A stretch of 64,000 bases of DNA, taken from the NCBI GenBank assembly GCA_965237905.1, contig OZ250172.1, positions 1,664,001-1,728,000 on the forward strand, written 5' to 3'. Of this stretch, positions 7,030-61,937 are shown one piece after another. This stretch comes from Nitrospinaceae bacterium (lineage in GTDB: Bacteria > Nitrospinota > Nitrospinia > Nitrospinales > Nitrospinaceae). The notes beneath the pieces are model-generated. The model did not search any database. It saw only the letters and a program-made list of their open reading frames with translations, and was not told the origin of the DNA. The translations under genes and the position numbers were made by a program. Position 1 is the stretch's first letter. Each line of letters opens with the position of its first letter.

Positions 7030-7077
7030 CCAGCCAGCGTGATGCTGGACCTGTGTTCTGAATTGCGCTTAAAAAAT

Positions 7078-7120
7078 AAACCCGGAAGATGATTACTCAT
7101 CTTCCGGGTTTTTTCTTTTT
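7078..7120. terminator. Bidirectional terminator between convergent helicase and amt
   Basis: AAACCCGGAAGATGA-TTAC-TCATCTTCCGGGTTT with an A-run on the left and a T-run on the right. Confidence 0.9.
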
Positions 7121-7136
7121 AGAAGGGGATTATGAA

Positions 7137-8369
7137 TCAGGAATATCTTGAGGTAACGTCTTCCGGATTCGACTCCACTTTGTGCACCGTGATGTCCGAG
7201 CCTTGCAGTTCATCGTCTTTTTCCAACCGGATGCCAAACAGGCTGTCCAGAGTTTTATAGACAATGAACCCGGCCACCAAAGCTACCGCCACCGCGGCCA
7301 GCGAGCCGATCAGCTGTGCCATAAAAGTGACGTCGCCTATCCCACCAAAGGACTTGAGCCCGAAAATGCCACAGGCAATGCCGCCCCAGGTTCCGCAAAT
7401 TCCATGCAGGGGCCAGACACCGAGCACGTCGTCGATCTTCAGTTTCTCCTGCTCCCAGGTAAACCCGTAAACGAAAATGACTCCCGCAATGCCGCCGATA
7501 AAAAAAGCGCCGATGGGATGTACTTGGTCCGACCCGGCGCAGATAGCCACCAGTCCCGCCAATGCACCGTTGTGGATAAAACCGGGATCGTTTTTGGAAA
7601 CGACCAGGGCAAACAGAATGCCACCGACCATGGCGAACAGGGAATTCATCGCCACCAGTCCGGAGATGCCCTTGATGGTAGCGGCGGACATGACATTAAA
7701 TCCGAACCAGCCGATGCACAACATCCATGCGCCCAACGCGAGAAAAGGGATATTGCTGACCGGGATGGGCCGGCTTCTGCCCTGCGAATCCCAGCGGCCT
7801 ATACGAGGCCCTAAAACAATAACGCCGACCAGTGCCAGCCATCCGCCCATGGAGTGAACGACGACTGACCCGGCAAAATCGTGGAAGGGAGCTCCGGCAA
7901 ACTTTTCCAACCAGGAACCTCCCTGACCCAGAAAAGTGATTTGCCCCCAGACCATGCCTTCAAAAAAAGAATACACCACGCCTACGAAAATTGCGGCGGC
8001 CACCGCCTGCGTCCAGAACTTGGCGCGCTCCGCGATACCGCCAGAGATGATCGCGGGAACCGCCGCGGCAAAGGTCAGCAGAAAAAAGAAATGCACCAGC
8101 TCATAGCCCTGTTTGTCAGCGACCAGGGTGTCGGCCGATTGATAAAAGTAAATTCCGTAAGCAATGGCATAGCCGATGGTGAAATAGATAACCGTGCTGA
8201 TCGCAAAGTCGACAATGATTTTCACCAAAGCGTTGACTTGATTTTTTTTGCGTACCGTGCCCACCTCAAGGAAGGCAAAACCGCCATGCATGGCAAATAC
8301 CATGGCCGCCCCCAACATCATGAATAGCACGTCTCCACTTTGCTCGAGAGCAAGGACATCATTTTCCAT
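7137..8369 (-). CDS. amt: Ammonium transporter (Amt family)
   Basis: GFAFLEVGTVRKKN, IISGGIAER, DFAGSVVVH, WFGFN, NGALAGLVAI, DDVLGVWPLHG (twin His present). Confidence 0.96.
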   Translation of the reverse strand: MENDVLALEQSGDVLFMMLGAAMVFAMHGGFAFLEVGTVRKKNQVNALVKIIVDFAISTVIYFTIGYAIAYGIYFYQSADTLVADKQGYELVHFFFLLTFAAAVPAIISGGIAERAKFWTQAVAAAIFVGVVYSFFEGMVWGQITFLGQGGSWLEKFAGAPFHDFAGSVVVHSMGGWLALVGVIVLGPRIGRWDSQGRSRPIPVSNIPFLALGAWMLCIGWFGFNVMSAATIKGISGLVAMNSLFAMVGGILFALVVSKNDPGFIHNGALAGLVAICAGSDQVHPIGAFFIGGIAGVIFVYGFTWEQEKLKIDDVLGVWPLHGICGTWGGIACGIFGLKSFGGIGDVTFMAQLIGSLAAVAVALVAGFIVYKTLDSLFGIRLEKDDELQGSDITVHKVESNPEDVTSRYS

Positions 8370-8490
8370 AAGTTCCCCCTTTTTCTACTCGTCCTGAAAC
8401 CTGCCAAGAGTATAATGAATGTGCTCGAAGTATCGGCCGCCCTTGCATGCAAAGGTCCGAATTCACTTCCCCACCCGAGGCTCTGTTGAA

Positions 8491-11356: not shown

Positions 11357-11896
11357 ATGAACTGTCCGGCGTGTCACCACGAATTGAAACTCCTGCAGAT
11401 TACGGGTGTTAAAGTGCATGCCTGTGAAGGCAGTTGCGGCGGTCTCTGGTTCGAGTGGAACCAGCTCAAAAAACTGAAGGACCGGAATGCGGCGGCAGGC
11501 GCCGAATTGCTCCACGTGGAACGGGCCGATGGTGTCCACGTTTTCAGGGATATTCAACATCCCTGCCCCAAATGCATACACACGTTGCTATACCGGCACT
11601 GTTTCAGCAAACCCTTCAATTATGAGGTCGACCAGTGCTCCAAGTGCGGTGGGTTCTGGCTGGATGTGGGTGCCCTGGCCCACCTGTCGCTGAAGTCGCC
11701 AACCGAATCGGATCAACAAACCGCAAAGGCGTATTTCAAAAGCCTGTTCGAGGAAAGTTTAAAGCCTGAAAACCTGACCCATCCGGATACCCAGGAAGCG
11801 GCACAAATCATTTACGATCTGTTCCGCTTCCTGACCCCGCAACCGCTGTTCCCGGCGGAGTACCTCCGCCTCCTACCCGGAGGGGGAACTAGCTGA
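11357..11896 (+). CDS. Double zinc-ribbon (zf-TFIIB-like) protein; last about 14 codons repeat-derived
   Basis: MNCPAC...CEGSCGGLWF and CPKC...VDQCSKCGGFWLD. Confidence 0.85.
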   Translation: MNCPACHHELKLLQITGVKVHACEGSCGGLWFEWNQLKKLKDRNAAAGAELLHVERADGVHVFRDIQHPCPKCIHTLLYRHCFSKPFNYEVDQCSKCGGFWLDVGALAHLSLKSPTESDQQTAKAYFKSLFEESLKPENLTHPDTQEAAQIIYDLFRFLTPQPLFPAEYLRLLPGGGTS

Positions 11897-11972
11897 CCGC
11901 TAGGGACTAAAGAGATTCGCTGAGCGCAATTCAGAAATTGGGTCCCGCGTGACGCTGGCCTCCGGGGAGGAG
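11855..11972 (-). repeat. Modular hairpin repeat (family A) overlapping the gene end
   Basis: GCGGAGTACCTCCGC hairpin, CTCCTACCCGGAGGGGGAACTAGCTGACCG, TGAGCGCAATT, CCCGCGTGACGCTGG. Confidence 0.85.
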
Positions 11973-12332: not shown

Positions 12333-13649
12333 ATGAGTATGAAAGCAGAAAATAAAAACAACTCTCACTTTACCCCCTCGCTCCGGAACGAATCCGGGAT
12401 CGCGATGATTTCGGCTCTGCTGCTCCTGGTTGTTATGGTTGCCATGGCGCCTATGGCCGTAAGATTGACAATGGGAGAAATAAACCGGGTTAATGAGTTC
12501 AAGGGAAGCAAGCAAGCGTTTTTTGTCGCCGAGGCGGGATTGGAACATGCCAAACTCTTGATCGAACAAAGTTCCACGGAAGCGGCTCTGTTCGGTCCGG
12601 ACGACGTTGTATCCGCAACGCCCGGTGATTCCGTCAATGACGATAACGGCACTTTCGGCGCCGGAACCTTGTTCACCGGAACCGATGGCAATGTCTACGA
12701 CGAAGTGGCCTTCAACGGCAGTACCTATTATATCCGCGCCTATGACAACGATGATGGTGATGGCGACCCGACGACTGATGCCGATAACCTCATTATGGTG
12801 TCCGCTGTGGGCGTTGTTGATGGCAACACCAGCACGGTGGAAGCTACCATTTATAGTCCTCCCGGAGTAGTAAATGCGGTCACAACCAACGGAAATCTCA
12901 ACATATCAAATCACTCTGACATACTTGGAGATTGTAGCGACATTCATGCCAATGGCGATTTGGATATTACGGGGGGGGTGACTATGGATGGGATTGGCAC
13001 CGCTACCGGAACCTACCAGTACGCCGGTTCAACCGTTTCTACGGGTGATCACGATATTGATGTCCCCTTTCTTGATCCCACTCAATATGAACAATATGCG
13101 GACTACAAACTCGCCGCAGACAGCAATGTCTATGACGCCAATGGTAACTTTGTCTCAAGTTCGCCCTGGAACGGTTGGAATCATTCAGGTTCCAAATGGT
13201 CCTTGTCCGACGACTTTCCCGCAGACGTGTCGCTCTATGTGGAAGGGGACGTCCAGATATCAAATAACCCGACTGGACCATGGGCGGTAACCATTATCGC
13301 CACAGGCTACATTGATGTCTCCAGTGGTAATGGCGAGTTCATAAACAAAAAGAATCCTTCCGATCCGGAAGAAATTCAAAATATATTTATGCTGGCGGGA
13401 ACCGATCTTAAGTTCAAAGGTAACAATATTCATACCATCGAGGGTCTGTTCTATGCCAAGGAACAAATAGACATGAGCGGGGATACCCGTATTGAGGGAG
13501 CCGTCATGGCCTATAATGGCTCTGCGTCAGAAAGTTTGGTAACTGCAAACAAGATCCGTGATGATGTCGCTATTACATATGGTTGTGGTTTGGTCGTACC
13601 GGGACTCTTGGGGCAAGTGAACGTAGTTTCGTGGAACGAGATAAACTGA
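12333..13649 (+). CDS. PilX-like N-terminus protein with C-terminal beta-rich adhesin-like region
   Basis: Prepilin-like NESG/IAMISALLLLVVM and QAFFVAEAGLEHA. Asp/Gly-rich C-terminal region ending VVSWNEIN. Confidence 0.75.
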   Translation: MSMKAENKNNSHFTPSLRNESGIAMISALLLLVVMVAMAPMAVRLTMGEINRVNEFKGSKQAFFVAEAGLEHAKLLIEQSSTEAALFGPDDVVSATPGDSVNDDNGTFGAGTLFTGTDGNVYDEVAFNGSTYYIRAYDNDDGDGDPTTDADNLIMVSAVGVVDGNTSTVEATIYSPPGVVNAVTTNGNLNISNHSDILGDCSDIHANGDLDITGGVTMDGIGTATGTYQYAGSTVSTGDHDIDVPFLDPTQYEQYADYKLAADSNVYDANGNFVSSSPWNGWNHSGSKWSLSDDFPADVSLYVEGDVQISNNPTGPWAVTIIATGYIDVSSGNGEFINKKNPSDPEEIQNIFMLAGTDLKFKGNNIHTIEGLFYAKEQIDMSGDTRIEGAVMAYNGSASESLVTANKIRDDVAITYGCGLVVPGLLGQVNVVSWNEIN

Positions 13650-13726: not shown

Positions 13727-14122
13727 ATCCCCCCCGTCCCCCCTTTACAAGGGGGGCTCAAAATCCTGTTCATCCTGCTGATCCCGTTATCCTGTCAAAG
13801 CCCCCGGTCCCTTCTTCGACAAGATCAAGACAGGCTGGCCCTGTTCCTCAGAATGACAAACCGTTTCCCCCTCCTTGAAAAGGAGGGGTTAGGGGTGGTT
13901 GATATCAACCCCTCCCAGCCTCCCCTTAAAAAGGGGAGGAGTATCTGGTTTTCTCCGTGCCCTCTGTGGCCGGGCAAGGCCCGGAGCAAATTTGGGTCCA
14001 GCGGTCACACTGGCCTCCGGGTAGAAAGCGGAGTACCTTCGCAAGTCACTTGAAGCCCTTGATCGCGCCCGGCGAATCTCTTTTGGCGGTAACGGTCAGC
14101 CAGCTCCCCTTCCGGGTAGGAG
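13727..14122. repeat. Mosaic cluster of several REP-like repeat families
   Basis: CCCCTCCTTGAAAAGGAGGGG-type hairpins, AATCCTGTTCATCCTG...ATCCTGTCAAA, CTCAGAATGACA, CTCCGTGCCCTCTGTGG, plus a family A copy at 13969-14122. Confidence 0.85.
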
Positions 14123-17996: not shown

Positions 17997-18825
17997 ATTG
18001 GGCGCAGCGGAAACCCTGCCAGACTTTGAAGACGTTGGGGTGTTCGTTGAGGCGATATGTGGTGCGCATGTAGTAGGCTTTGTAGTACCAATTGCCGCCG
18101 CGCAGGACTTTGCTGATTCCCGTTTCCGGGCCTTGCGGATCTTTTGCGGGCGAATGCTCGTAATAACTGTCTTCATACCAGTCCGCCGTCCATTCCCACG
18201 CGTTACCTGCCATGTGATGCACACCGTAGGGAGACTGTCCTGCGGGCAGGGTGTCGACCGGTTTCATGGCATCGAATCCGTATTTGGAAAACTTTCGGCG
18301 AAACGTGACGAAATCGTTGTGAGGAAATTGGTTGCCCCAGGGAAAAACCCTTTCATCGGTCCCGCGTGCGGCTTTTTCCCATTCGGCTTCGGTCGGCAGG
18401 CGCTGGCCCAGCGAACGGCAATAGGCATCGGCCCCATACCAGGACACCCGATTGGCAGGATGCTTCTCCAATCCCGGCCGTGGACGATACATGCCATCTA
18501 CTTTTTCGATGGTGACGGCGGTTCCCATTTCGATGTAGCGCTCTGCCTCATCGGAATGGGCGTTTAAAAAGTCAGCGAAGTCTTGAGCGGTCACCTCATA
18601 ACGATCGATGAAATATTCGCTGAGAGTGACTTCGTGGACTGGCTCTTCGTCGGTATCGCCCCACTCGTGTTCGTTTTCGATGACCGCACCCATGAGAAAG
18701 GGTCCGGCGGGAATACGCACCTTATTCTCACTCGAGGGCTGTGTCGGAGTTACTCCGTCACAACTCCAACTCCCGAGACAGAGCACGCATAAAATAAATA
18801 GTTTCCCGGATTCAATGATATTCAT
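17995..18825 (-). CDS. Formylglycine-generating enzyme (FGE/SUMF1) domain protein, probably exported or lipoprotein
   Basis: IPAGPFLMG, RLPTEAEWEKAARG, FPWG, MAGNAWEW, RGG, GFRC. Confidence 0.9.
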   Translation of the reverse strand: MNIIESGKLFILCVLCLGSWSCDGVTPTQPSSENKVRIPAGPFLMGAVIENEHEWGDTDEEPVHEVTLSEYFIDRYEVTAQDFADFLNAHSDEAERYIEMGTAVTIEKVDGMYRPRPGLEKHPANRVSWYGADAYCRSLGQRLPTEAEWEKAARGTDERVFPWGNQFPHNDFVTFRRKFSKYGFDAMKPVDTLPAGQSPYGVHHMAGNAWEWTADWYEDSYYEHSPAKDPQGPETGISKVLRGGNWYYKAYYMRTTYRLNEHPNVFKVWQGFRCAQ

Positions 18826-29021: not shown

Positions 29022-29249
29022 GGCCAGCGTGACGGCGTCGAATCGCCGCAGATAAATTTAATACCTTATAAATCGCGCCCAACAATTTTCGCCAGCTGTC
29101 AACCGTCAGCAAGTAGCCCCTCCTGCTAAGGAGTTGCCTCCCTCGCTAGAGGGCCGGGCAAGGCCCGGAGCAAACTTTAAACTATGAATTGTGCTCAACG
29201 ATTAACGATGCGATAAAGCTGTCAACCAACTGCCTCCCTCGCTAGAGGG
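29022..29249 (+). repeat. Tandem family A repeats
   Basis: GAATCGCCGC and CCGGGCAAGGCCCGG hairpins, AATTGTGCTCAACGA, duplicated TGCCTCCCTCGCTAGAGGG. Confidence 0.85.
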
Positions 29250-37040: not shown

Positions 37041-37136
37041 GCGGAGTACCTCCGCCCGTAACTTTAAAACTTTTAGTTGTGCACAAGGATTGTCGTCCGC
37101 TGTTAACGGTCAACAAATTCCCCCTCTGGGAAAGAG
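37041..37136 (+). repeat. Family A repeat
   Basis: GCGGAGTACCTCCGC ... GCTGTTAACGGTCA ... TTCCCCCTCTGGGAAAGAG. Confidence 0.85.
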
Positions 37137-38279: not shown

Positions 38280-38448
38280 GCGGCAAATCGCCGCAGACCA
38301 GCGTAACGCTGGACCTGGTTCCGAATTGTGCTCAACAATTTCCCAATGCAGTCAACCGTCAACCAGTTTCATCTCCCCGTGAGGGGAGTTGCGCCCGAGG
38401 ATCATCGCCAGCCGTTAACGGTCAGCCAGTTCCCTGCCCTGGGAAGGG
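38280..38448 (+). repeat. Tandem family A repeats filling the dnaX-ybaB spacer
   Basis: GCGGCAAATCGCCGC, CCAGCGTAACGCTGG, AATTGTGCTCAAC, GCCGTTAACGGTCAGCCAGTT. Confidence 0.88.
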
Positions 38449-40185
38449 CTAGCGGATGACAATGCCGCCGAAAATGTCCAGCGCGTCCTTTAAAACTTCC
38501 TCTTCAGAGGAAGAACCCTTTTTTGTGCGGCCCTTGCCGCCAGCGGCTTCCGGCTCGGGCGGATCGAGGGTGTCTGCCACCGAAGCGGATGTGGGTTTCC
38601 CCAACTGCAATTTGATTTTTATATCCGATTGGCCACACACCTGAGCCACGGCTTCCTTTAAAGCCTCAAAATTTTCTTCCTTCTCTACCAATCCCATGGT
38701 GTAAGGATCGGGAAAACTGAGGCGAATCTCTTTCGCGTCGAGCGCGGTCAACTGGCAATTATCCAGATAAGTACCGAGCGGACGTTTGATGGTCCCGGCC
38801 GCTGAACGAATTTTCTGCCACGCCCCCTCTGACGAGGGAGGCACCGGCGAAGCGCCGGAGCAAATTTCGTTGACCGTTGACGCCTGACGACGGTCTCCCG
38901 GCACATTTGGAGGATCCACCGGCTCATCGCGTTTCGGCGCAGGCTGTGCGGGTTCCGGTGCCGATTTTATGACCGTTGACCCCTGTCGATGATCGCTGGA
39001 CCCTGTTGAATAGCCGGGTCCAGCGTCACGCTGGCCCGCCGGGGAGGGTCCCTCCATGTGATTGATCTTATCGATCAACGCGTCGATTTCCCGCATGGGT
39101 CGAACATCTGTTAATCGTAGAACTGCCATCTCAAACAGGATCTGCGGCAGAGAACTGCGTTTCATTTCCATTTCCGCTTTCGACAACACCTGAAACATCT
39201 GTTGCAATTCATCCGGCTCGAACGAAGCGGCCTGTTTCTTGAGCGTGTCTAAATTCGTGGTCTGCCCGGACAACAACGATTCGGCATTGCCCGCCACTTT
39301 CACCAGCATCAGGTTGCGGAGATATTCGATAAGGTCGCGGCAGAAGTAGCCGAGGTCTTTGCCATGCGCAATGACTTCCGCCACCTGTTGCAGTAAACCG
39401 GCGGCGTCTCTTTGCATCACGCAGTCGACAAAAGCCGCCAGCGCGTTTTGTCCGACGATGCCGAGGACCGACTCCACCGCGCCGGAATCGATCTCTTTCC
39501 CGCAAAACGCGATGACCTGGTCCAACAGGCTTTGCGCGTCGCGCATACTGCCGGCGCCGTTCTTGGCGATCTCTTCCAGGCTGTGCGGATCAATTTGGAT
39601 GCCGTCGTGCTCGCAGATGGCTTGCAACTGGTCGATGATCTGCTGATGCGTGAGCGGTTTGAATTCGAAACACTGGCACCGCGAAAGAATGGTTTCGGGA
39701 ATTTTGGTCAACTCGGTGGTGGCAAAAATGAACACCACCTGCGGCGGCGGTTCCTCCAGCGTTTTGAGTAATGCGTTGAACGCGGCTTTCGACAACATGT
39801 GAATTTCGTCGATGATGTACACTTTGAAACGGCAGGCCGAGGTACTGTACTGAATATTATCGATCAGGTCGCGCACTTCGCCGACGCCGTTGTTGGACGC
39901 ACCATCGATCTCCATCACGTCGACGCTGATGCCATCGCGAATTTCCTTACAGAAATTGCACTGGTCGCACGGTTCGGGTGTCGGGCCTTCGGCGCAGTTG
40001 AGTGCCTTGGCAAGCAGGCGGGCAGTAGTGGTTTTGCCGACGCCGCGGGTGCCGGAAAACAGGTAGGCGTGGGCCACGCGGTCCATCCCGATGGCGTTGT
40101 GGAGGGTGCGGACGATATGCTCCTGTCCGATCAGCTCCGAAAACTTCTGGGGCCGCCATTTGCGGGCCGAAACCTGAAAATCCAT
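38449..40185 (-). CDS. dnaX: DNA polymerase III subunits gamma/tau
   Basis: ARKWRPQKF, GTRGVGKTT, IIDEIHML, SRC, GSMRDA. Confidence 0.97.
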   Translation of the reverse strand: MDFQVSARKWRPQKFSELIGQEHIVRTLHNAIGMDRVAHAYLFSGTRGVGKTTTARLLAKALNCAEGPTPEPCDQCNFCKEIRDGISVDVMEIDGASNNGVGEVRDLIDNIQYSTSACRFKVYIIDEIHMLSKAAFNALLKTLEEPPPQVVFIFATTELTKIPETILSRCQCFEFKPLTHQQIIDQLQAICEHDGIQIDPHSLEEIAKNGAGSMRDAQSLLDQVIAFCGKEIDSGAVESVLGIVGQNALAAFVDCVMQRDAAGLLQQVAEVIAHGKDLGYFCRDLIEYLRNLMLVKVAGNAESLLSGQTTNLDTLKKQAASFEPDELQQMFQVLSKAEMEMKRSSLPQILFEMAVLRLTDVRPMREIDALIDKINHMEGPSPAGQRDAGPGYSTGSSDHRQGSTVIKSAPEPAQPAPKRDEPVDPPNVPGDRRQASTVNEICSGASPVPPSSEGAWQKIRSAAGTIKRPLGTYLDNCQLTALDAKEIRLSFPDPYTMGLVEKEENFEALKEAVAQVCGQSDIKIKLQLGKPTSASVADTLDPPEPEAAGGKGRTKKGSSSEEEVLKDALDIFGGIVIR

Positions 40186-40368: not shown

Positions 40369-40797
40369 GCCGGGGCAAATTTAAAACCGGGCAAGGCCCG
40401 ATCAAGTGGCGAATCGCCGCCTCCTGCCCGGAGGGGGAGCTGGTTAATCATTACCTTCAAGCGAGAACCGTTGAGCGCAAATTAACACCTCCCTCCCTCC
40501 TTTTAAAGGAGGGGCTGGGGGTGGTTGATGACCCTTTCATCATTCTGTAGTTGCTCGATTGATCGAGCGGTTTTAAAAGACGCCCCATAAATGGAGCAAC
40601 TACAAAATAGGGAATAAAATTATCAACCCCACCTAACCTCCCCTTTGGAAGGGGAGAAATATTTCAGGTCCAGCGTCACGCTGGCCCCTTCGGGGAGGAG
40701 GCGGAGTACCTCCGCTGGTCACTTAAAAACCTTGAACTGCGCTCAATGATCATCGCCAGCTGTCAACTGTCAGCCAGTTCCCCCTCCGGGGAGGAGA
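40369..40797. repeat. Large mosaic repeat cluster (family A plus other REP-like families)
   Basis: All four 15-nt hairpin types, CCCTCCTTTTAAAGGAGGG, and TGTAGTTGCTC...GAGCAACTACA inverted pair. Confidence 0.88.
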
Positions 40798-43379: not shown

Positions 43380-43547
43380 TTTAAGCGCCCAACCCGGCCA
43401 GCGTGACTCCGGGCGGCGAATCGCCGCAGACCAGCATGACGCTGGACCCAACCGGGCAAGGCCCGGCGCAAATTTTAAAACGGTGAATTGTGCTCAACGA
43501 TTGACGCTTGCTGTTAACGGTCAACCCGTTCCCCCTCTGGGGAAGAG
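43380..43547 (+). repeat. Family A repeat stack abutting the tRNA-Ser(GGA) 3' end
   Basis: Three hairpin types in series, then the core and TTCCCCCTCTGGGGAAGAG. Confidence 0.9.
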
Positions 43548-43637
<90 letters not shown>

Positions 43638-43669
43638 GTTTTAAAATGTGAAGCGCAGGGAAGGGATAC

Positions 43670-43843
43670 TTTGAATTGCGCCCAAGAATTCCCTCTTGCA
43701 ATGAACCGTCAGCCAGCTCCCCCTCCGGGAAGGAGCGGCAAACCGCCGCAGGCCAGCGTGACGCTGGACCCAAATTCTGAATCGCGCTCAACGATCTTCG
43801 TTCGCCGTTAACGGTCGGCAAGTTCCCCCTCCGGGGAGGAGAG
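43670..43843 (+). repeat. Tandem family A repeats between two tRNA-Ser genes
   Basis: Two cores, each ending CCCCCTCCGGG(G/A)AGGAG. Confidence 0.9.
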
Positions 43844-44013: not shown

Positions 44014-44217
44014 ATGCGGCGAATCGCCGCTGATAATTTTAAAATTCTGGCTGGCGCAAATCGCTGTTCAATTTCGCCATAACACCTTTGCAAAATTTCT
44101 TCCGGGCGTGGCCCGGGCGGCGAATCGCCGCTGATAATTTTAAAACCTTGGTACGCGAACGCAACGGATTGAATTCGCAATCAGCTTCCAGCAAAATTCT
44201 CACCGGGCATGGCCCGG

Positions 44218-45134: not shown

Positions 45135-45824
45135 ATGTCTAAAAGCCGAATGACTCCCAAATCGATCCGTAGCCGCCAGAAAATTCTGGATGCAGCTTTG
45201 CTCCTGTTCGTCGAAAAGGGGTATGACAAGGCCACTATGCGGCAGATTGCCGTCCAAGTGGGTATGGCACCGGGCTCGATTTACCACCATTTCCCTACCA
45301 AGGAGCATATTGTCCAGACGTTCTACGACGTGATCCACGAGGAGCACGCGCAGGCCTGTGTGAGCATTCTGCTGAGTGAAATCAAGCTGGAGCATCGCCT
45401 GCGGGAGGTGATCCGGAAAAAAATCCAATTGGCTGAACCCTTTAAAAAGGTTTCCGGCGTGCTGTTCCGGGTGGCCTCGGATCCCCACAATCCGTTGTCC
45501 CCATTCAGCGCCCAATCCTCCCCCACTCGTGACAAGAGTCTGGCCCTGTTCCGGGAGCTAGTGGCGGGTTCCAGCGCCAAACTCCCGGAGGATGTCGACA
45601 TCCTGTTGGCCGATTATCTGTGGCTGTACCAGATGGGGATCATCCTGTACTGGATTCACGATACCTCGGAAAATTCCCGGAAAACCTTCCGGCTCATTGA
45701 CCGGACCGTCAAGCTGATTCAAACACTGGTCGAACTTTCCAGCCTTCCCCTGATTGCCCCCTTCCGTAAAAAATTCACCAAATTGATGCTCGAATTTTTA
45801 CCGGACTGGGGGAGGAGTGAATGA
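45135..45824 (+). CDS. TetR-family transcriptional regulator
   Basis: RQKILDAALLLFVEKGYDKATMRQIA...IYHHFPTKE; C-terminal PLSPFS, LYWIHDTS. Confidence 0.93.
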   Translation: MSKSRMTPKSIRSRQKILDAALLLFVEKGYDKATMRQIAVQVGMAPGSIYHHFPTKEHIVQTFYDVIHEEHAQACVSILLSEIKLEHRLREVIRKKIQLAEPFKKVSGVLFRVASDPHNPLSPFSAQSSPTRDKSLALFRELVAGSSAKLPEDVDILLADYLWLYQMGIILYWIHDTSENSRKTFRLIDRTVKLIQTLVELSSLPLIAPFRKKFTKLMLEFLPDWGRSE

Positions 45825-46975
45825 AAAGCCGACCTATCAACAAAGTACGTATTTACTGGGGAGCGTTCTTCCTGGTGCTGGTGCTGGCTTGCATGATGTA
45901 CCAGTTGCAGGTTTTCTGGGGGGTATGGTTCCTGGTGCCGGCATTGATCGGGTTGGTGTACCAATTGCGAATTTACTGGGGAGTCTTGCTGATAGTACTG
46001 GCGGTAGCCGGCATGATGTATCAGTTTCTGGTGGCCGGACATCTGGAACAGACGTCGGCCCTGTTCATGGGGATCGCCACGGTTCTGGCTCTGGGCCTTT
46101 CTTTGTTGCCGCTGTCCGAAAATGCCACGGGCAATCCAGCACCTAAAAGCACCACGGGTAATATTGTGTTGGGGACCATGATCGCCCTGGCATTGTCGAT
46201 GATTGTGTTTCGGGAGGGGGCCGTATGCATCCTGATGGCCACTCCCTTATTTCTGACGATAGGGGCTTTCATAGGCCAGGGATTGGACGCCGTTAGAAAC
46301 CCAAAAAATAAAGCCCGGATGAGAATGGTGCTGGCATTGATCTTTCTACCGCTTTCGTTGGAGGGAGTGACGGATGAATTGTCTTTCAACCGAAGCGAAA
46401 CCGTCACTGTCAGCCGAGTAGTGGCCCTGTCTCCGGATCGGGTTGAGCAAAACCTGGCCCGCATGCCGGATTTATCCAAAACCCTGCCTGCGTTCCTGCA
46501 ATTGGGTTTCCCCGAACCACAGCACTACAGTGGGGCGGATTTAAAAGTCGGGGCACAACGATGTTTTCATGTTCCGGCCAGGGAAAATCTGTCCGGCGAG
46601 GTGTGCTGGACCATCGAACAGCGAGGCTCCAACCACGTCCTGTTCAAGCTGGTGAAAGACGAGAGCAAAATTGCGCACTGGATGACCTGGCGCACCGCCA
46701 AAGTGGAATGGTCCGCCGAAGGTGGCGGCCAGCGTGACGCTGGGCGGCGAATCGCCGCAGATAATTTAAAATCTGAAATTGCGCCCAGGGAATCTACCTC
46801 GGAGTCAACCGTCAGCCAGTTGCCTCCCCTGCAAAGGGGTAACGGTCGGACCCGTGTGGTGGTCACGCTCAAATTCTGGCGGGAGCTCGACCCGGCGTGG
46901 TATTTCAGCCCGCTGGAACGGTACGCGGTGGGCCTGACGGGTGGTTATCTGATTGAAGCTTATCTGGGGCAATGA
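45821..46975 (+). CDS. Membrane protein with SRPBCC-like C-terminal region, containing an in-frame family A repeat
   Basis: Several TMs, EGAVCILMATP, FLQLGFPEP, RELDPAWYFSP. Confidence 0.7.
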   Translation: MKSRPINKVRIYWGAFFLVLVLACMMYQLQVFWGVWFLVPALIGLVYQLRIYWGVLLIVLAVAGMMYQFLVAGHLEQTSALFMGIATVLALGLSLLPLSENATGNPAPKSTTGNIVLGTMIALALSMIVFREGAVCILMATPLFLTIGAFIGQGLDAVRNPKNKARMRMVLALIFLPLSLEGVTDELSFNRSETVTVSRVVALSPDRVEQNLARMPDLSKTLPAFLQLGFPEPQHYSGADLKVGAQRCFHVPARENLSGEVCWTIEQRGSNHVLFKLVKDESKIAHWMTWRTAKVEWSAEGGGQRDAGRRIAADNLKSEIAPRESTSESTVSQLPPLQRGNGRTRVVVTLKFWRELDPAWYFSPLERYAVGLTGGYLIEAYLGQ

Positions 46976-48330
46976 TTATGGACAAAATAGAACTTGGTCA
47001 ACAAATTATCCAACTCCGAGTGCTGTTTTTGCTCGGCCCCGTTTCCCTTGTGTATCTTCTGCTGTGTTTCCGGGCGATCACCTACCGGCAGTTGACCGGA
47101 ATATATTTGTCCACCCTCTGGTGCTTTTTAAGTCTCCTGTTCCTTAACCCTTTGATCATCGAACTGGGTGGATGGGAGTATAAGGTTTCCAAAATTACGT
47201 TCATGCAAATTCCAATGGATGTGTTGATCGGTTGGGCGGTGTTTTGGGGCGCAATTCCCCATCTTATTAAAATTCCGGGAGGAGTGTTCTCCTGGGTGGC
47301 CCTGCTGTTTCTTTTGGATCTAGCGGTCATGCCCTTGTTGGAACCCTTAGTCCAGATCCAATCGGGGTGGCAGTACTGGGACGCATTGTGTTTACTGATC
47401 GCGTTCGTGCCCTCATGGTACCTGGCCCGATGGACCGCCAGGCGGGATTTTCTGTATGTCCGCAGTTTCATGCAATTAATCATGTTCGTTTTGATCTTTA
47501 ACTGGATGATCCCTGTCTCCTTCGAACCCCATAAAATTGGAATCCTAATCCATTCCCTGATCCTTGGGAAAACGATTACCACCCACGGCATTCAAATGGC
47601 CTTCTGGGATAATAGTGGAATGCGCTGGGAGGGGTTTATCTACTGGGGCACTCTGTTATTGTTCATTACTATCCCCGGGATATCCGCAGTGCAGGAATTT
47701 GCGGCAAGAGGATGGGGCACTCCGTTTCCCCTGGATCCGCCCGTCAAGCTGGTCACCACCGGTCCCTACGCTTACATCGCCAACCCCATGCAGGCGTCAC
47801 AAACATTGATCTATGTGTGGATGGGGGTAGGGTTGAACAGCATCGGGTTTTATTTTGCGGGGTTGATGGTCATCCTGTTCGCTATCGGGTACGCCAAATG
47901 GGAGGAAGAGGAAGAAATCAAAAAGCGATTTGGAAACCGGGCCTTTCGATACAAAGTCTGGGTGCGCAGATTCATTCCACGCTGGAAACCCTGGCGTAAA
48001 AAACCCGCCACGATATACCTGGATTTGTATGGATGCATCGCCTGTTCGAATCTGGGACGGGTGCTTCTTTATCTGCAACCTACCTTATTGATCATCAAGG
48101 ATGCGCGGTTTTACGCCAGCGAAGATTTAATGCGGATGGCTTACAAAGATGTGGATGGTTTTGAAGCGCAGGGAATTCATGCGCTGGGCCGGGCGCTGGA
48201 GCACGTCAACCTGATGTGGGCCCTTGTCGGATGGACGGTGCGTCTGCCTGGAATTAGCCAACTCGGCCAGTGGATCATCGATGCTGTGTTTCCACCCCAC
48301 CGCGTCTGCCGCGTCCCGGAAGTGGAATAG
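46972..48330 (+). CDS. PEMT/ICMT-like membrane methyltransferase fused to a DCC1-like CxxC domain
   Basis: GTPFPLDPPVKLVTTGPYAYIANPMQ, EEEEIKKRFG, RRFIP; tail YLDLYGCIAC. Confidence 0.78.
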   Translation: MIMDKIELGQQIIQLRVLFLLGPVSLVYLLLCFRAITYRQLTGIYLSTLWCFLSLLFLNPLIIELGGWEYKVSKITFMQIPMDVLIGWAVFWGAIPHLIKIPGGVFSWVALLFLLDLAVMPLLEPLVQIQSGWQYWDALCLLIAFVPSWYLARWTARRDFLYVRSFMQLIMFVLIFNWMIPVSFEPHKIGILIHSLILGKTITTHGIQMAFWDNSGMRWEGFIYWGTLLLFITIPGISAVQEFAARGWGTPFPLDPPVKLVTTGPYAYIANPMQASQTLIYVWMGVGLNSIGFYFAGLMVILFAIGYAKWEEEEEIKKRFGNRAFRYKVWVRRFIPRWKPWRKKPATIYLDLYGCIACSNLGRVLLYLQPTLLIIKDARFYASEDLMRMAYKDVDGFEAQGIHALGRALEHVNLMWALVGWTVRLPGISQLGQWIIDAVFPPHRVCRVPEVE

Positions 48331-48427
48331 CCGGGCGGAGCATCTCGTTTTGCAGTCCAGCCGTCATTACATTTCTTTAACAGCACCAATGCGTTTGTTT
48401 GGGTTGTCATTTTGATGAAGTGTTAAA

Positions 48428-49738
48428 GTGATTTTTGGAGAATTTGTGAGAAAACTTATACCTCTTCTACCGGCTCTATGTATTTTTCCGATAGGAGTTC
48501 TACTTATCGAGAGTTCCGTTTTAAGGCTTCTTTGGGCAACCTTAGGGCTGCTCTTTTTACTTAAAGTTGGCTCTGTTATTCGAAATATACAGCTTTCTCT
48601 GTCGTTACCTCAAAAGCTGGGTTGGATTCTCTATTTTTTGTTCTGGCCGGGAATGCGCCCCGAGTCTTTTGCTCGTCGATCTTCACAAGATGAAGAGGTT
48701 GGACATATCTTTGTGAAAGGATTTCTATCCTTTATTTTTGGGGTTGGTATCCAGATTGTTCTTTTTTGTTATTGGAATCAAATTTCTACATTTACTAGAC
48801 AGTATCTGGGACTATTTTCTTTTTTGATTTTAATTCACTTCGGGGTTTCTTCAATGCTGTTTGTTATCTTTAGAATTCTCGGGTGGAAGGTTGAATCTCT
48901 GTTTATGTCTCCTTTCAAAAGCACCTCCCTTAGAGATTTTTGGGGCCGCAGGTGGAATCTTGCCTTCGTCGACATGGATAAACGTCTTTTTCTACCACTT
49001 TTTCCTACAAACCTACCTAAGGCGGTTAGCTTCGTGGGGATTTTTTTGCTTTCTGGTATATTGCACGAAACCGGAATTAGTTACCCTGCGAATTCAGGAT
49101 GGGGCGGACCTTTGCTATATTTTGCTATTCATGGAGCTCTTACCTGGATAGAACCAAAACTTCCAGTAATTAATAGTTCTCGCACGGCAGGCAGAATTTG
49201 GCTTTGGGTATGTATTCTTCTGCCATTGCCTCTTTTGTTTCATCAGCCATTTTTAAAATCTTTTATCGAGCCTTATTTTACTTTTGGACATAACTTGGCG
49301 TCTTCAATGAAATCGATCGAAGTTCTTAAATGGGCTATTCTTGCGTGCGGATTAGGACACTTTCTTGTTTTGGTGGCCACCTTCCAGGTTCCGAAAAAAT
49401 TGAATTGGCACGAAGAGTTTTCAAAGCTTAGCCGGTTCAATAAAAAGATTTTCTGGACCTATGGAGGCTATATTGTTTTCTGCATTGTCTCTTTTGGAAT
49501 TATAGATCTGATCAACGCAAAAGATTTAATGGATATCAATCCCAGCTCACTGGCTATCGCTTTATTCATCTCAATTTTCTGGACTGCGAGAGTTATTGTT
49601 GATTTTTCCTATTATAAACATACCGATTGGCCGCCAGGAGATGAGTTTGTCGTAGGTCACACTTGCCTAACAACACTTTTCTGTTTTTTGGCGTTAACTC
49701 ATTGGAGCCTTGTTCTATGGCAGTTGACGCAAAATTGA
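48428..49738 (+). CDS. MBOAT (wax-synthase-like) membrane O-acyltransferase with extra C-terminal membrane domain
   Basis: PFKSTSLRDFWGRRWN, FLLSGILHE; markedly T-rich codon usage. Confidence 0.82.
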   Translation: MIFGEFVRKLIPLLPALCIFPIGVLLIESSVLRLLWATLGLLFLLKVGSVIRNIQLSLSLPQKLGWILYFLFWPGMRPESFARRSSQDEEVGHIFVKGFLSFIFGVGIQIVLFCYWNQISTFTRQYLGLFSFLILIHFGVSSMLFVIFRILGWKVESLFMSPFKSTSLRDFWGRRWNLAFVDMDKRLFLPLFPTNLPKAVSFVGIFLLSGILHETGISYPANSGWGGPLLYFAIHGALTWIEPKLPVINSSRTAGRIWLWVCILLPLPLLFHQPFLKSFIEPYFTFGHNLASSMKSIEVLKWAILACGLGHFLVLVATFQVPKKLNWHEEFSKLSRFNKKIFWTYGGYIVFCIVSFGIIDLINAKDLMDINPSSLAIALFISIFWTARVIVDFSYYKHTDWPPGDEFVVGHTCLTTLFCFLALTHWSLVLWQLTQN

Positions 49739-49867
49739 AGTTAAGAAATCTCCAAGAGATAGAGGCACATGGATGGATCCCCCTTTTCTTGAATAGTTCT
49801 CGATAAGTTTCACTTTTCATTAACGGTCAGCCACTTTTCCTCCCCGGTTACGGGGCCTGGGAAGGAG

Positions 49868-49959: not shown

Positions 49960-49980
49960 ATTTTAAATTTTATTTGATAT

Positions 49981-50137
49981 CAATTGCGCCCAAGGATTTC
50001 GCTCACCGTCAACGTTCAGCAAGTCTCGTCCCTCGTAGAGGGCCGGGCAAGGCCCGGAGCAAATTTAAAATGCTAAATTGCGCTCCACGGTCGTCGCTCG
50101 CTGTTAACAGTTAGCCAGTTCCCCCTCTGGGGAAGAG
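49981..50137 (+). repeat. Tandem family A repeats between tRNA-Ser(GCT) and tRNA-Ser(TGA)
   Basis: AATTGCGCCCAAGGA, CCGGGCAAGGCCCGG, GCTGTTAACAGTTAGCCAGTTCCCCCTCTGGGGAAGAG. Confidence 0.9.
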
Positions 50138-51162: not shown

Positions 51163-51361
51163 CTCTTGCCCAGAGGGGGAACTTGTTGACGGTTGACAGC
51201 AGACGGCAATCATTGAGCACAATTGAAAGATTTCAATTGTGCTCCGGGGAGGCGGCGGCGAATCTATGTTTTAAACGTAAACCCAGATTCTTCGTCGCAT
51301 ACGCTCCTCAGAATGACAGAGAAATATTTATTGTCATCCTGAGCGCCAGCGAAGGATCTGT
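51163..51361. repeat. Family A repeat (reverse) plus AGATTCTTC...CAGAATGACA / TGTCATCCTGAGC...GAAGGATCT inverted pair
   Basis: Downstream of serS; related half-sites at 13847-13858 and 30628-30650. Confidence 0.85.
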
Positions 51362-53520: not shown

Positions 53521-53768
53521 TTTAAAACCGCTCGATCAATCGAGCAATTACGAAATAGGGAAAGGGTCATCAACCACCCCCAGCCCCTCCTTTAAAAGGA
53601 GGGGAGAGGTTCAATTGTGCTCAACGATCATTGTTTGCTGTCAACCGCCAACCAACTCCCCCTCCGGGGAGGCGGCGGCGAATCGCCGCAGATAAGCTAA
53701 ACCTTTAATTGCGCCCAACTATTCCCTCTGGGCGGTGACTGTCAGCCAGTTCCCCCTCTGGGGAAGAG
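53521..53768. repeat. Mosaic repeat cluster abutting the gyrA stop codon
   Basis: Inverted copy of 40406-40577 plus a further family A core ending TTCCCCCTCTGGGGAAGAG. Confidence 0.9.
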
Positions 53769-58817: not shown

Positions 58818-59052
58818 CTAATCCAAACAAGTAAAATTTAAGAGTATAAATCTAGTAGTAGTAGTAGGGACTGTGTAAATGGGGGAAACCCGGCTAACTT
58901 ATGTATTATAAATATAACTATTAATGAACAAAAACCTCAGTTTCCGGCTTTCTCCGTGGACGGATGGGGATAGTTTTTAGCCGAAATTATTATACCTTAA
59001 TTTCGATGTTTTTATCATAGTTTTTGCACAGCTTTTTTACAGGTTATCCATT
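58818..59052. other. Probable oriC (DnaA-trios plus DnaA boxes)
   Basis: AT-rich tract, (TAG)5 at 58853-58867, GGAC, TGTGTAAA-TGGGGGAAA boxes; TTTTGCACA at 59022-59030 and further degenerate boxes; immediately downstream of dnaA. Confidence 0.85.
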
Positions 59053-60390
59053 TTCAATCAGCTTGATAATCTCCTGAACCTTCTTCCCCATTTCCTTGTT
59101 TTCATTGAGCATACCGGAAACCTTGCGATAGGAGAAAATGACGGTGGTGTGATCTTTGCCGCCAAACTGGCGGCCGATTTCGGGGAGCGATGCCTGGGTA
59201 AATTCGCGACAGATATACATGGCAATCTGACGCGGAATCGAGATGTCCCGGGAGCGCTTTTTGGACTTCAAATCCGCGACTTTTAATTGGAAAAATTGGG
59301 CCACGGTTTTTTGAATATTAGGTATGGTGAAATGGCGATTTTTGTCGACGGTGAAATCCTTTAAAACTTCTTGCGCCAACTCAAGATTAATTTCTCTGCG
59401 GGTGAATGATCCGTAAGCGATGATCCGCAGTAATAAGCCTTCCAGTTCCCGGATATTGGATTTGATATTGTTAGCCAGAAACATAGCCACATCCTGAGGG
59501 ATGGTTTTTTGGTGGATTTCGGCTTTTTGATACAGGATAGCCATTTTCGTTTCCAGGTCCGGCGGCATGATGTCTGCAATCAACCCGCTTTCGAACCGGG
59601 ATCGTAGCCGCTCCTCGATGTTTTGCATATCCTTGGGATAGCGGTCGCTGGAGATGACAATCTGCTTGTGATACTCGTAAAGGGTATTGAAGGTGTAAAA
59701 GAATTCCTCCTGCGTGCGCTCCTTCCCCGCAATAAACTGAATATCATCTACCAGCAGAACGTCCAATGGCCGGTAGCGTTCACGAAACCCCTGCATTCGC
59801 TCTTTTTTAATGGACTCGATTAAATCCACCGTGAAACTTTCTGCGGAGATGTAACGTACCTGGGTCTGTGGATTGGCTTGCACAATGGCATTGCCAATGG
59901 CGTGGAGGAGATGCGTCTTGCCCAACCCGACCGCTCCGTACAAAAACAGGGGATTGTAATTATGGGCCGGGTTCCCGGCCACTGCTTGGCCCGCGGCGTG
60001 AGCGAACTGGTTATTGGGTCCCACCACAAAATTTTCAAAGTTGTATTTCGGATTTAAGAACCCTTTGTTGAACAGAGGGGTAGGTGGGGGTATATCCTTA
60101 ACTTTTTGCGGTTCCTGGACCTCTGTCGATGAGGACGCATTCTTTTTAAAATCACTATTAACCCGGAAGCGCACTGCCAACTTTTTATTGGACACGGTTT
60201 CCAGAGCGTTCTCAATCAGCTCCAGATAGTTTTCCGTCAGGCATTTTTCATAAAAACGGTTGGGCACGGCGATGGTCAAAACGTTTTCATCTTTGGAGCA
60301 GGCATACGTTGGCGTAAACCACGTATTAAAATTTTCAGGAAGAACTTGCTTCTCTATTTCTTCGAGACAGTTGTTCCAAAGAACCTCCAT
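59044..60390 (-). CDS. dnaA: Chromosomal replication initiator
   Basis: FNTWF, YNPLFLYGAVGLGKTHL, DDIQF, QEEFF, RELEG, GKDHTTV; start set at ATG 60390. Confidence 0.98.
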   Translation of the reverse strand: MEVLWNNCLEEIEKQVLPENFNTWFTPTYACSKDENVLTIAVPNRFYEKCLTENYLELIENALETVSNKKLAVRFRVNSDFKKNASSSTEVQEPQKVKDIPPPTPLFNKGFLNPKYNFENFVVGPNNQFAHAAGQAVAGNPAHNYNPLFLYGAVGLGKTHLLHAIGNAIVQANPQTQVRYISAESFTVDLIESIKKERMQGFRERYRPLDVLLVDDIQFIAGKERTQEEFFYTFNTLYEYHKQIVISSDRYPKDMQNIEERLRSRFESGLIADIMPPDLETKMAILYQKAEIHQKTIPQDVAMFLANNIKSNIRELEGLLLRIIAYGSFTRREINLELAQEVLKDFTVDKNRHFTIPNIQKTVAQFFQLKVADLKSKKRSRDISIPRQIAMYICREFTQASLPEIGRQFGGKDHTTVIFSYRKVSGMLNENKEMGKKVQEIIKLIENG

Positions 60391-60911
60391 ACAGGGCTCC
60401 GAGCACTTGGTTTGAAAATTAAAATATATCAGGTAGGAGGACGGCAATATATAAAACGGGTGGATCGAAATCAACTACAAAAGAAATTTAAAATAGTGTG
60501 GGGGTCCTAAGTAAAGTAATAACATGGTCTTCGCGTTCAAAACTTTTTTAAACTTTATCGCTCGACCTTCCTTCATTTTTTATGCGTGGTGATCACCTTA
60601 TTTTCTGCAAGAGCAACGCATTTAAATCCATGAGTTTATCCCGCCACTCCCTTGCGTTGTTTTGCAACTAACAGAAACCCGCGACACGCGGGCGGCAATT
60701 TCAGGTAGGAATTTGCCTCAGGGTTTTTAACGAAACCTTGCGATTTTAAAAGCGTCGTTGCGAAATCATCGTTGCGGTGCATTGTAATCAACGTTCCAAC
60801 CGGCTTCCGTGCGCAGGAAGCCCAACACCCTTCCTCAAGGGACGGACTGTTCGAAACGGTCCGTCCCAGCCCGCCTTAAACGGTTAACCTAAATTCTAAT
60901 CGGAGAACACC

Positions 60912-61100
60912 ATGCAATGGCTGAAAGGTAAGAAAACCTACATCATCGCCGGCCTGATGGCCTCGGCGTCACTCGTTCACCTCATGTCAGGTGATATGGG
61001 CCTCGCGGAATTCGTCACCAGCGAGCACTTGAGCACTCTTTTGGAAGGCGTGGGCCTGGGGACCCTCCGGGCCGGCGTATCCAGCAATCGTGGTTATTAA
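60912..61100 (+). CDS. Small holin-like membrane protein
   Basis: 62 aa, RBS GGAG, KGKKTYII...GLGTLRAGV with hydrophobic segments; first gene of a phage-like operon. Confidence 0.55.
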   Translation: MQWLKGKKTYIIAGLMASASLVHLMSGDMGLAEFVTSEHLSTLLEGVGLGTLRAGVSSNRGY

Positions 61101-61434
61101 TTTCGCACTCGCCGCGCTGACTGCGCTTGTTCTGGCCGGGAACCCCGCGTCCTCGTCCGACAAGAACCGAATCCTCGATGCCCGTTGGTCGCTCAATCCC
61201 GCCGGGCAGTTGCAGTTGTGGTTTGATCCTCTACACAACGGACGGGATGAATTTGAGGAGACGTACACGGTGATCCTCAATGACCGCGCACCCAAAATGT
61301 GCGGCGACCCGGATGGCACCGGCCGGCATACCTGGTTCTTCACCGATGCCCTCCTGATCGAAGTGGTGCCGGTGCGTTCACAGGCTACCCCAATCTACCC
61401 CCATCCTCAAAAACGTAAGGAACTCCCGCGATGA
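61090..61434 (+). CDS. Exported hypothetical protein
   Basis: Signal-like N-terminus; overlaps both neighbours. Confidence 0.6.
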   Translation: MVINFALAALTALVLAGNPASSSDKNRILDARWSLNPAGQLQLWFDPLHNGRDEFEETYTVILNDRAPKMCGDPDGTGRHTWFFTDALLIEVVPVRSQATPIYPHPQKRKELPR

Positions 61435-61937
61435 CTTTGGAAATATTGCGAACAGTTACGCCCTTCATCACCTTGTTGCTGATGATCGGGGTGTGGGTGA
61501 TCGGCTGGCTGGTCAAGCGCCTCATGACCGAAAGCGGTTTGCATTTTGCCGATCTCAAGAAAGAACTGAAGCACAAGATCGATCAGCGTAGCTGGGAGCT
61601 GGAAAAACGCATGGACAAGCTGGAGCGCGACCTCGAAAAACTCGAAGCCTCCCGCCTCGTCGATCAGAAGTATCTGTACGAGCAGTTCGTGCCCAAGGAA
61701 GGGTTTTACCGCACCATCGGCAAAACCGAAAGCTCCATCGGGCGCATCTTCAAACTCATCAACGAACTCAACAAAACGGTCCACCGACTCCCCTCACGGG
61801 GAGGGGGGGGCGAATCGCCGCAGACCAGCGTGACGCTGGACCCAATTTTTGAATTGTGTCCAACGACCGTCGACAGGAGTCAACAGTCAGCGAGCTCCCC
61901 CTCCGGAGAGGAGTCGCCGCCCCCTTCCCATGAATGA
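61431..61937 (+). CDS. TM plus coiled-coil protein resembling Mu-like pre-terminase (DUF2730-type) proteins; C-terminus repeat-derived
   Basis: N-terminal TM, heptad region, QFVPKEGF motif; family A repeat at 61788-61912 is translated. Confidence 0.6.
   Translation: MTLEILRTVTPFITLLLMIGVWVIGWLVKRLMTESGLHFADLKKELKHKIDQRSWELEKRMDKLERDLEKLEASRLVDQKYLYEQFVPKEGFYRTIGKTESSIGRIFKLINELNKTVHRLPSRGGGGESPQTSVTLDPIFELCPTTVDRSQQSASSPSGEESPPPSHE

Follow-up and report, generated by a model that had tools for sequence, protein, structure and literature searches.

What are the short, hairpin-bearing repeats that crowd the intergenic spaces near the replication origin of a Nitrospinaceae genome, and what carries them from place to place? 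The window analysed is a stretch of 64,000 nt (G000:1664001-1728000, G000 being the Nitrospinaceae source genome, a single contig of 3.09 Mb). The genome holds about 130 copies of a non-coding insert of about 100 bases, of which about 95 contain one core sequence (core I) and 35 another (core II). The family is likely a very small, widespread kind of mobile DNA that is moved by a predicted enzyme. With about even confidence, its members are read here as gene-less, hairpin-bounded inserts that are probably cut at their outer hairpin feet and pasted as single-stranded DNA by an enzyme predicted to act in trans. Single-strand cutting and joining in trans is proposed because the joints lie at hairpin feet, the two ends are unlike, the target is not duplicated, arrays start at a foot, and hairpins serve as targets. 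The predicted enzyme would cut at the outer foot of each hairpin, and the element would be pasted as single-stranded DNA in the manner of REPINs/BIMEs and IS200/IS605.

Architecture of the elements

Each element consists of a hairpin, 4 nt, an AATT-like motif, the core, a second AATT-like motif, 4 nt and a second hairpin. Its borders are the outer feet of the end hairpins, and the palindrome continues past the foot in 0 of 182 ends. The hairpins, or heads, have a 6-bp stem and a 3-nt loop, and at least ten end types are in use. An initial annotation of this window had described four 15-nt hairpins and a shared core, all of which are present at, or a few bases from, where it had placed them. 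The four hairpins do differ in sequence, as it said, but are not unrelated: H1, H5, H2 and H4 are connected by single compensatory pair changes, and H3 leads a second small group. The 'CCCCCTCYGGGGARGAG' block that it assigned to the 3′ side of the core is also there, and is itself one of several swappable tail hairpins with the same end design. Left and right ends are of the same head type in 1 of 129 core I, 0 of 30 core II and 1 of 33 g6-lineage elements (g1, g3, g4, g6, g12 and g17 are genus or lineage labels). The inner tags are ACCC/ACTC, AGGT/AGAT/TGGT and AGCA; the outer flanks are variable, the first outer base being biased to pyrimidine only (32 of 35 for H1). The inner core is bounded by an imperfect inverted repeat of only 6–7 bp.

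A profile search counted 95 core I copies genome-wide, and 21 near-full-length copies lie in the window; 78 of the 95 are free of indels, and their mean pairwise identity is 0.64. Heads with a perfect stem, counted over all of G000, number 61 for H1, 45 for H3, 27 for H4 and 26 for H2, about 0.2 being expected of each, and 20 of them stand in the window. The linkage of hairpins to the shared core, on which the initial annotation depended, holds, since 61 of 93 cores (and 13 of the 21 in the window) have a head immediately upstream. Heads are nevertheless not always tied to a core, as 37 of 61 H1 and 21 of 45 H3 heads are coreless. Core II is a second, related core with 35 genome-wide matches, two of them in the window, and a mean pairwise identity of 0.57. 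It is usually flanked by two inward-facing 15-nt hairpins, with a total length most often of 101 bp (12 of 30 elements) and an inner length of 69–71 in 20 of 30. The repeats at 44016..44217, previously taken for copies of the first core, are two copies of core II. The inner length of core I is ~61 with H1 and ~68 with other heads, and a helical-phase reading of the spacing was rejected on this ground.

The modules are also found in other combinations. Coreless dimers are made of two hairpins joined through one shared AATT (e.g., at window position 13970), and heads stand alone or are fused to the genome's DUF559, GIY-YIG and GxxExxY repeats. Where heads are stacked, the outer end is precise and the inner ends vary in length, and a head-to-tail array of 94–95 bp units (G000 1848624-1849070) has units that start at a hairpin foot. 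Under single-strand cutting and joining, the end module would be the active unit, and end modules may be swapped by crossover at AATT. One core I copy, at G000 2221624, is enlarged by 7-base units resembling the heptamer arrays of other repeat families.

Positions 14 and 47 of core I covary strongly: of 187 unique cores, 177 have either C14-G47 or T14-A47 (Fisher p 1e-26). The pair is present in 66 of 73 cores in G000 alone and in 97 of 102 after thinning to <80% identity, and the covariation exceeds all 100 column shuffles. Cores with T14-A47 are not a subfamily (identity 0.645 within the group and 0.631 between groups), and the neighbouring G13-C48 is retained in 130 of 133 cores. Pairing of 13-14 with 47-48 might close the core in a single strand, or act as a contact between a guide and the cleavage site. 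A mechanistic analogy is offered by IS200/IS605 and TnpA-REP, which combine guide-based cleavage with hairpin recognition (PMC8266576, in excerpt). An extended RNA structure of core I was rejected, as no pair beyond 14/47 and a weak 25/29 exceeds independence; a consensus fold recovered the tail hairpin alone, with no consistent RNA fold of the core. The g12-lineage core resembles a long stem when judged by eye, and the g6 core has a possible terminal pair in 28 of 34 cases against 21.3 expected, a weak signal. A coding function was rejected, there being no codon periodicity by eye and stops in the frames, and readings as sigma-70, sigma-54 and sigma-28 promoters or as sites for integration host factor (IHF), judged by eye against the consensus sequences, did not fit.

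Filled and empty sites, gene ends and the origin

Four relatives (G001, G002, G008 and G010) were compared site by site, and their matching regions include filled, empty and differently filled sites. At window position 18001, G008 is filled, the last codons of a gene holding the insert; at 61800, the site is empty in G001 and occupied in G008 by a core I in opposite orientation; and at ~29000 both G008 and G001 are empty. No target-site duplication is seen at any of the three. The comparison of filled with empty sites that the initial annotation had proposed yields insertions without duplication, and its suggestion of structure-based recognition is supported by this, by the compensatory stem changes and by joints that fall precisely on the hairpin foot. 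Conservation of sites does not extend across families (5 of 59 shared, versus 13 of 198 controls). Elements of G032 are inserted into the loop of DUF559-type palindromes, and those of G052 lie at the apex of another palindrome. The assembled contigs of sequencing runs gave only joints between paralogous copies.

Gene-end statistics for G000 rest on home-made gene calls, by which all 35 core II copies and 91 of the 95 core I copies lie outside genes. Most tails point towards a gene 3′ end (64 of 95 in core I, 28 of 35 in core II), and 41 of 185 ends abut another module. Among 82 free ends facing a gene 3′ end, 13 are at exactly 0 nt (~0.5 expected) and 19 are within -1 to +2 nt, where chance is ~0.6% per position; no free end facing a gene 5′ end is at 0 nt. 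Repeated adjacent deletions from the active end may trim the flank to the first essential base, such as a stop codon or a tRNA end. Core I-like elements also abut tRNA 3′ ends in genera g4 and g17 (L587, L560, L589), including tRNA-Ser-like genes.

This orientation, and the stacked heads with their precise outer and variable inner ends, would also be expected if the elements were transcribed with mRNA 3′ ends and copied back by reverse transcriptase, like tiny bacterial short interspersed elements (SINEs), which would leave one end precise and the other variable and place the targets at the ends of genes. An RNA route has been suggested for duplication-free double-hairpin elements in Allomyces mitochondria (PMC2800124, in excerpt). 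Such a route is very unlikely here, however, as G000 has no detected reverse transcriptase, the mirror-image end design suggests action on both strands, the core has no consistent RNA fold, and the variation is not adenine-specific.

The window holds gyrB, gyrA, dnaA (59044..60474, minus strand) and the cumulative GC-skew minimum, and therefore spans oriC; dnaA lies outside the repeat family and marks the origin beside which element density peaks. The density in the window is not representative, as it is this oriC peak. Twenty-three of 78 core I loci are within 50 kb of oriC against 2.5 expected, a ninefold enrichment, and two are within 300 kb of the terminus against 15 expected. In the relatives, 13 of 58 core I loci map within 50 kb of oriC, and in G020, where the model was partly seeded with origin-proximal copies, 37 of 42 loci are in the origin half. 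Two g6 genomes have 5 and 7 cores near dnaA in 80 kb versus 0–1 per 20-kb control, which are small counts. Against a general origin bias, the H1 cluster of G015 (2.08-2.35 Mb, among the matches listed) is >1 Mb from dnaA. A recent local burst at oriC was rejected, identity being 0.655 between near copies and 0.648 between far copies. The DUF559, GIY-YIG and GxxExxY repeats of the genome, unlike core I, have no oriC enrichment. The origin bias may reflect fork-linked insertion or preferential retention.

An alternative that is compatible with past mobility is that the elements are now kept by the host, core I offering a site of fixed spacing near oriC to a protein that organises the chromosome, and the hairpins stabilising or terminating mRNA 3′ ends. 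The enrichment at the origin and scarcity near the terminus in G000, the similar figures in the relatives and G020, a nearly indel-free core with one consensus in g1 and g4, and tails that face gene 3′ ends all fit this explanation, as does a G020 tandem unit that ends in a parS-like palindrome. It is nonetheless unlikely: the sites vary among relatives and are not conserved across families, the G015 cluster is far from dnaA, the G020 count depends on a partly origin-seeded model, a double-stranded binding site would not need 14/47 covariation, and H1 in phages (see below) would be left unexplained. The G020 units lie ~27 kb before dnaA (L563:4855-5140), as three tandem copies of ~94 bp, each with an H3-type head and a spacer. 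The spacer ends in a 16-bp palindrome that fits the parS consensus, and the element seems to have multiplied parS. In G000, two parS-like palindromes (1751771 and 1751864) are found upstream of parA/parB, outside any element.

Range of the hairpins and the search for an enzyme

The core pattern gave 58 matching stretches in the whole GTDB collection, with titles of Nitrospinaceae, Nitrospina, Nitrospinota or, in two assemblies, Nitrospirota/Nitrospirae. In its strict form, the core I pattern is present in all 11 genomes examined in the genus and in none of 30 others; a looser model finds core I in 12 of 61 genomes, with 4 of 4 in g4, 1 of 3 in g3 and one occurrence in g17. The core I consensus is identical across genera g1 and g4. 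Other lineages of the order have their own cores of 60–70 bp behind the same heads, and these keep, by eye, a GCG box and a GC box 33–35 bases apart; the conserved core of Nitrospinales units is 45–65 bp. Among 120 genomes of the phylum, H1 occurs in 63 and the H3 stem in 76 (reversed controls 0 and 0–2). The initial annotation had missed the reach of one head far beyond this lineage, described next, along with the swappability of both ends, the second core and the oriC peak of core I.

The H1 20-mer occurs exactly in 52 viral loci, where 0.2 would be expected by a rough calculation assuming ~50 billion bases, and in at least 122 metagenome loci, over a GC range of 0.29-0.67. The bases next to H1, outside the search pattern, are conserved in viral contexts (A in 37 of 44, T in 32 of 44). 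Both filled and empty alleles exist at three sites in phages. One is the end of a tail gene, where H1-AATT-second hairpin, ~36 nt, is present without duplication in 5 of 80 related loci; it is the smallest insert found. The start of a capsid gene is filled in 7 of 42 loci, where the insert comes with an extra ribosome-binding site and start; one phage carries an H5-type compensatory variant in this position. The third site, a protease start, is filled in 1 of 80 loci. The H2/H4-type pattern had 0 matches in the viral collection, and the cultured phage and plasmid collections gave matches at E 1 or worse only.

A broader proposal, which we put forward tentatively and regard as doubtful, is that the ~36-nt hairpin-AATT-hairpin is a minimal mobile element across bacterial phyla and phages. 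It would be moved by a new structure-guided recombinase that joins hairpin feet, accepts compensatory variants and swaps at AATT, with the core gained in Nitrospinales and genes, or even parS, possibly carried along between flanking copies. One can also dispense with a dedicated enzyme, and suppose that hairpin nicking at forks, template switching and gene conversion capture short hairpins and reshuffle them at other hairpins. The use of hairpin feet and loops of unrelated repeats as targets, the failure to find a cognate gene and an origin-half bias that fits a link with replication are in keeping with this. We give it little credence, however, as the same H1 20-mer, with conserved next bases, recurs exactly over that range of GC, which implies sequence-specific recognition.

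Several results weigh against cutting and joining by a dedicated trans enzyme. G000, a single contig, gave no match to Y1 transposase, reverse transcriptase or IS110 transposase, and no mobile-enzyme family recurs beside heads. Inner DNA folds barely better than shuffles (mean z -0.5 to -0.9), unlike REPINs, and the two 4-nt tags have no mutual complementarity (p 0.18-0.79). At the phage capsid site, the filled allele has a second, diverged copy of the ribosome-binding site and first codons, and at a phage portal site some target bases are replaced and the joint is clean at one end only. Lenient matching placed core I in G000 as well at 33 of the 58 relatives' sites, and the copies look old, with a nearest-neighbour identity of 0.80 (median) and 0.91 (maximum), so that the mobility may lie in the past.

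The search was extended to other families and genomes. Four-helix-bundle families were not found in G000, and tyrosine recombinases gave five matches there among the matches listed. Of 101 genomes of the order, Y1 is present in 21 and DUF559 in 53, and neither tracks the heads. None of 24 Y1, 36 DUF559 and 30 GIY-YIG loci has heads as the gene's own paired flanks. The RAYT link drawn in the initial annotation lacks support: no Y1 transposase was detected in G000, and among the order's 24 Y1 loci none has a head on either side of the gene as a pair. The two Y1 genes of the genus each lie between inverted repeats of their own, and a truncated H3-core I copy (L018, G002:C17) is interrupted by a Y1 transposase element that has its own terminal inverted repeats. 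The 867 open reading frames (ORFs) beside heads form clusters of host genes only. In viral and metagenome loci, 189 ORFs neighbour H1; a scan of 111 of them at E 1e-12 gave no recurring family, with one IS4/5-like match and one rve match.

The modules might instead ride on a DUF559/Vsr-like, GIY-YIG/Ssn or GxxExxY nuclease that cuts single-stranded DNA hairpins, the pieces being joined by host repair. SsnA cuts single-stranded DNA beside its hairpin (PMC11893778, in excerpt). G000 has two DUF559 and two GxxExxY genes, each with its own palindromic repeats; heads are often fused to the DUF559, GIY-YIG and GxxExxY repeats through a shared AATT, the G032 elements sit in DUF559-repeat loops, and tails resemble shortened DUF559 palindromes. 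This explanation is unlikely, however, because DUF559 turned up in just 3 of the genus's 10 other genomes (incomplete metagenome-assembled genomes), G001 and G008 not being among them. Some DUF559 loci do have heads nearby, but these do not bracket the gene, which is flanked by its own repeats. Among small GIY-YIG loci, 27 of 30 are headless and the other three have a weak head only, and the small GIY-YIG protein of G000 is presumably of the host YhbQ type. The nuclease repeats also lack the oriC enrichment of core I.

Known systems and the elements of the window

The family behaves like REPINs and BIMEs yet lacks the features that define them (tag, like ends, long hairpin and RAYT), and it lacks those of MITEs (transposable elements of the miniature inverted-repeat kind) as well. 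Like the REPINs of Pseudomonas, which depend on RAYT/TnpA-REP, its members are extragenic, ~90–100 bp long and persist over long times, have two terminal hairpins and a spacer of preferred length, and form tandem or higher-order arrays (PMC3337134 and PMC3116915, in excerpt). They also share conserved ends with unique spacers (identity 0.64 in core I, 0.57 in core II), as in the conserved REPs with variable spacers of REPINs (PMC3337134, in excerpt). REPIN ends, however, are inverted copies of one REP group that pair into a long hairpin, whereas here the ends are unlike (same type in 1 of 129, 0 of 30 and 1 of 33 elements, as above), with little folding of the inner part; a GTAG tag is absent, the tag that is conserved being on the inner side, and no RAYT is linked.

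The REP/BIME mosaics of E. coli are likewise built of swappable palindromes and fixed spacers at gene 3′ ends, often supplying or abutting stop codons (PMC3733652 and PMC8266576, in excerpt), and the extragenic clustering near gene 3′ ends is the same here. The family differs in having no GTAG or CGTC tetranucleotide at the palindrome end, no bulged stem, heads of 6 bp + 3 nt, at least ten end types, coreless dimers, one end common to unrelated phages, and no cognate RAYT flanked by the same repeats (none in G000 and 0 of 24 Y1 loci). The REP/BIME analogy drawn in the initial annotation thus stands for behaviour, but not for the RAYT link or the tags. Non-autonomous derivatives of IS200/IS605 resemble it in their unlike left and right subterminal hairpins, lack of target duplication and possible guide pairing (PMC8266576, in excerpt). 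Here, by comparison, the joints are at the hairpin foot itself, the ends are mirrored on opposite strands, the target has a pyrimidine bias only and no fixed tetra- or pentanucleotide, and no autonomous TnpA-Y1 parent with the same ends was found in G000 or among the Y1 loci of the order. The Ssn/SRM repeats (GIY-YIG, CGTC-tagged) and DUF559 palindromes are also small hairpin repeats and occur in the same intergenic piles (PMC11893778, in excerpt), but they flank their own gene, and the heads flank no gene family.

MITEs of the DDE type have matching terminal inverted repeats and duplicate their target; the ends here differ, and no duplication is seen at the filled and empty sites of relatives or at the phage tail-gene site. 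Integron attC boxes (RYYYAAC/GTTRRRY) are absent from the consensus, and the flanking genes are housekeeping genes, not cassettes. Cyanobacterial small dispersed repeats (SDR) are very small and conserved in structure. So are the double-hairpin elements of fungal mitochondria, which produce no target duplication and whose enzyme is not known (PMC2800124, in excerpt). Both are likened by description, not by sequence, and the present family differs in being bacterial and phage-borne, with a conserved core of 45–65 bp in Nitrospinales. A literature search (Nitrospina and the exact sequences), with limited coverage of subscription journals, found no published description.

At the gathering score, the Rfam matches in the window are tRNAs and the signal recognition particle (SRP) RNA only, so the repeat matches no known structured RNA. 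The elements are listed from left to right, on the plus strand unless stated. A partial element at 7034..7075 (an H1 variant, linker and first core I bases) is just past the stop codon of a DEAD-box helicase. On the minus strand, 11855..11958 is a core I element with an H1-variant head (11944-11958), core and tail (11870-11939), and an H4 head (11855-11869) foot-to-foot with the tail. The stretch 13970..14122 has the coreless dimer (H3 via shared AATT to an inverted H1 variant), an H4 variant (14028-14042), and core I with tail (14053-14122). Between these last two lies a 438-aa pilin-like gene (12333-13649, with a PilX/GspK-type N-terminus), which is bracketed by elements and absent there in G008 and G001, and is a possible cargo of the flanking copies. 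At 29023..29249, truncated H1 and H2 precede core I (29063-29132), an extra tail, H3 (29154-29168) and core I (29179-29249), and neither head nor core I is at the matching place in G008 or G001. A divergent SecY-like gene (32410-33894), outside the ribosomal operon and below the NCBIfam cut-off, is absent there in G001, G002 and G008.

H4, core I and tail at 37041..37136 adjoin a terminator downstream of tRNA-Asn. At 38280..38447, stacked H2 and H1 are followed by two tandem core I, the last tail being ≤2 nt from the dnaX stop codon. The repeats placed by the initial annotation at 38853 and 38965 do contain the repeat sequence, but are minus-strand remnants inside the dnaX ORF (38820..39034), comprising a tail, H5 (38844-38858), core I (38867-38913) and H1 (39020-39034); the part at 38820-38918 is missing in G001, and in G010 the corresponding position is occupied by H5. 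An H3 variant, an H2 variant and core I (40421-40490) make up 40387..40490 (minus strand), which lies upstream of the SRP RNA gene. At 40670..40796, H1, a tail and H4 (40701-40715) precede core I (40727-40796), and the core supplies the stop codon of a DUF6173 gene.

Four stacked heads (broken H1, H2, H1, H3) and core I at 43398..43547 end in a tail that abuts the 3′ end of tRNA-Ser, with 0 nt between, and 43666..43841 (core I, an H2 variant, H1 at 43753-43767 and core I at 43772-43841) abuts the next tRNA-Ser. The core II elements at 44016..44217 are two tandem 101-bp units, each H2, core II and inverted H3. H1, H2, core I and tail occupy 46729..46837, and a degenerate core I at 49784..49853 adjoins tRNA-Ser. 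A 672-aa ORF and a 384-aa ORF without family matches and two membrane-enzyme-like genes (41290-43308 and 45821-49738) adjoin this tRNA-Ser cluster and are missing at this place in relatives. Core I, H3 (50043-50057) and core I (50068-50137) at 49974..50137 abut a tRNA 3′ end, and core I with tail is found at 51163..51232 on the minus strand. At 53605..53768, core I, H2 (53675-53689) and core I (53699-53768) end with a tail abutting the gyrA stop codon, 0 nt between; this element is also present in G008 and is absent in G010. An inverted tail, H2 variant, H1 and core I form the last copy (61788..61913). Beside dnaA lies a cluster of terminase, portal, prohead protease, major capsid, head-tail adaptor and tail-fibre genes (window 62241-63851, G000 1729961-1740328; L558). 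It is partly syntenic in G001, G008 and G010, a terminase homologue is near dnaA in G024, and the cluster may be a domesticated prophage resembling a gene-transfer agent.

Bacterial intergenic hairpin mosaics that dock on stop codons are common, and the mover of most is not known. This family gives a testable handle on the question, with a defined 15-nt hairpin, a base-exact joint, clean alleles of both kinds (filled and empty) in bacteria as well as phages, and a form as small as ~36 nt; a short oligonucleotide could serve as biochemical bait for the missing enzyme. If it exists, that enzyme would be a new, compact, structure-guided single-strand joining enzyme. The Nitrospinaceae are a major group of marine nitrite oxidisers, and the origin bias and parS-like capture link small repeats to chromosome organisation in these organisms.

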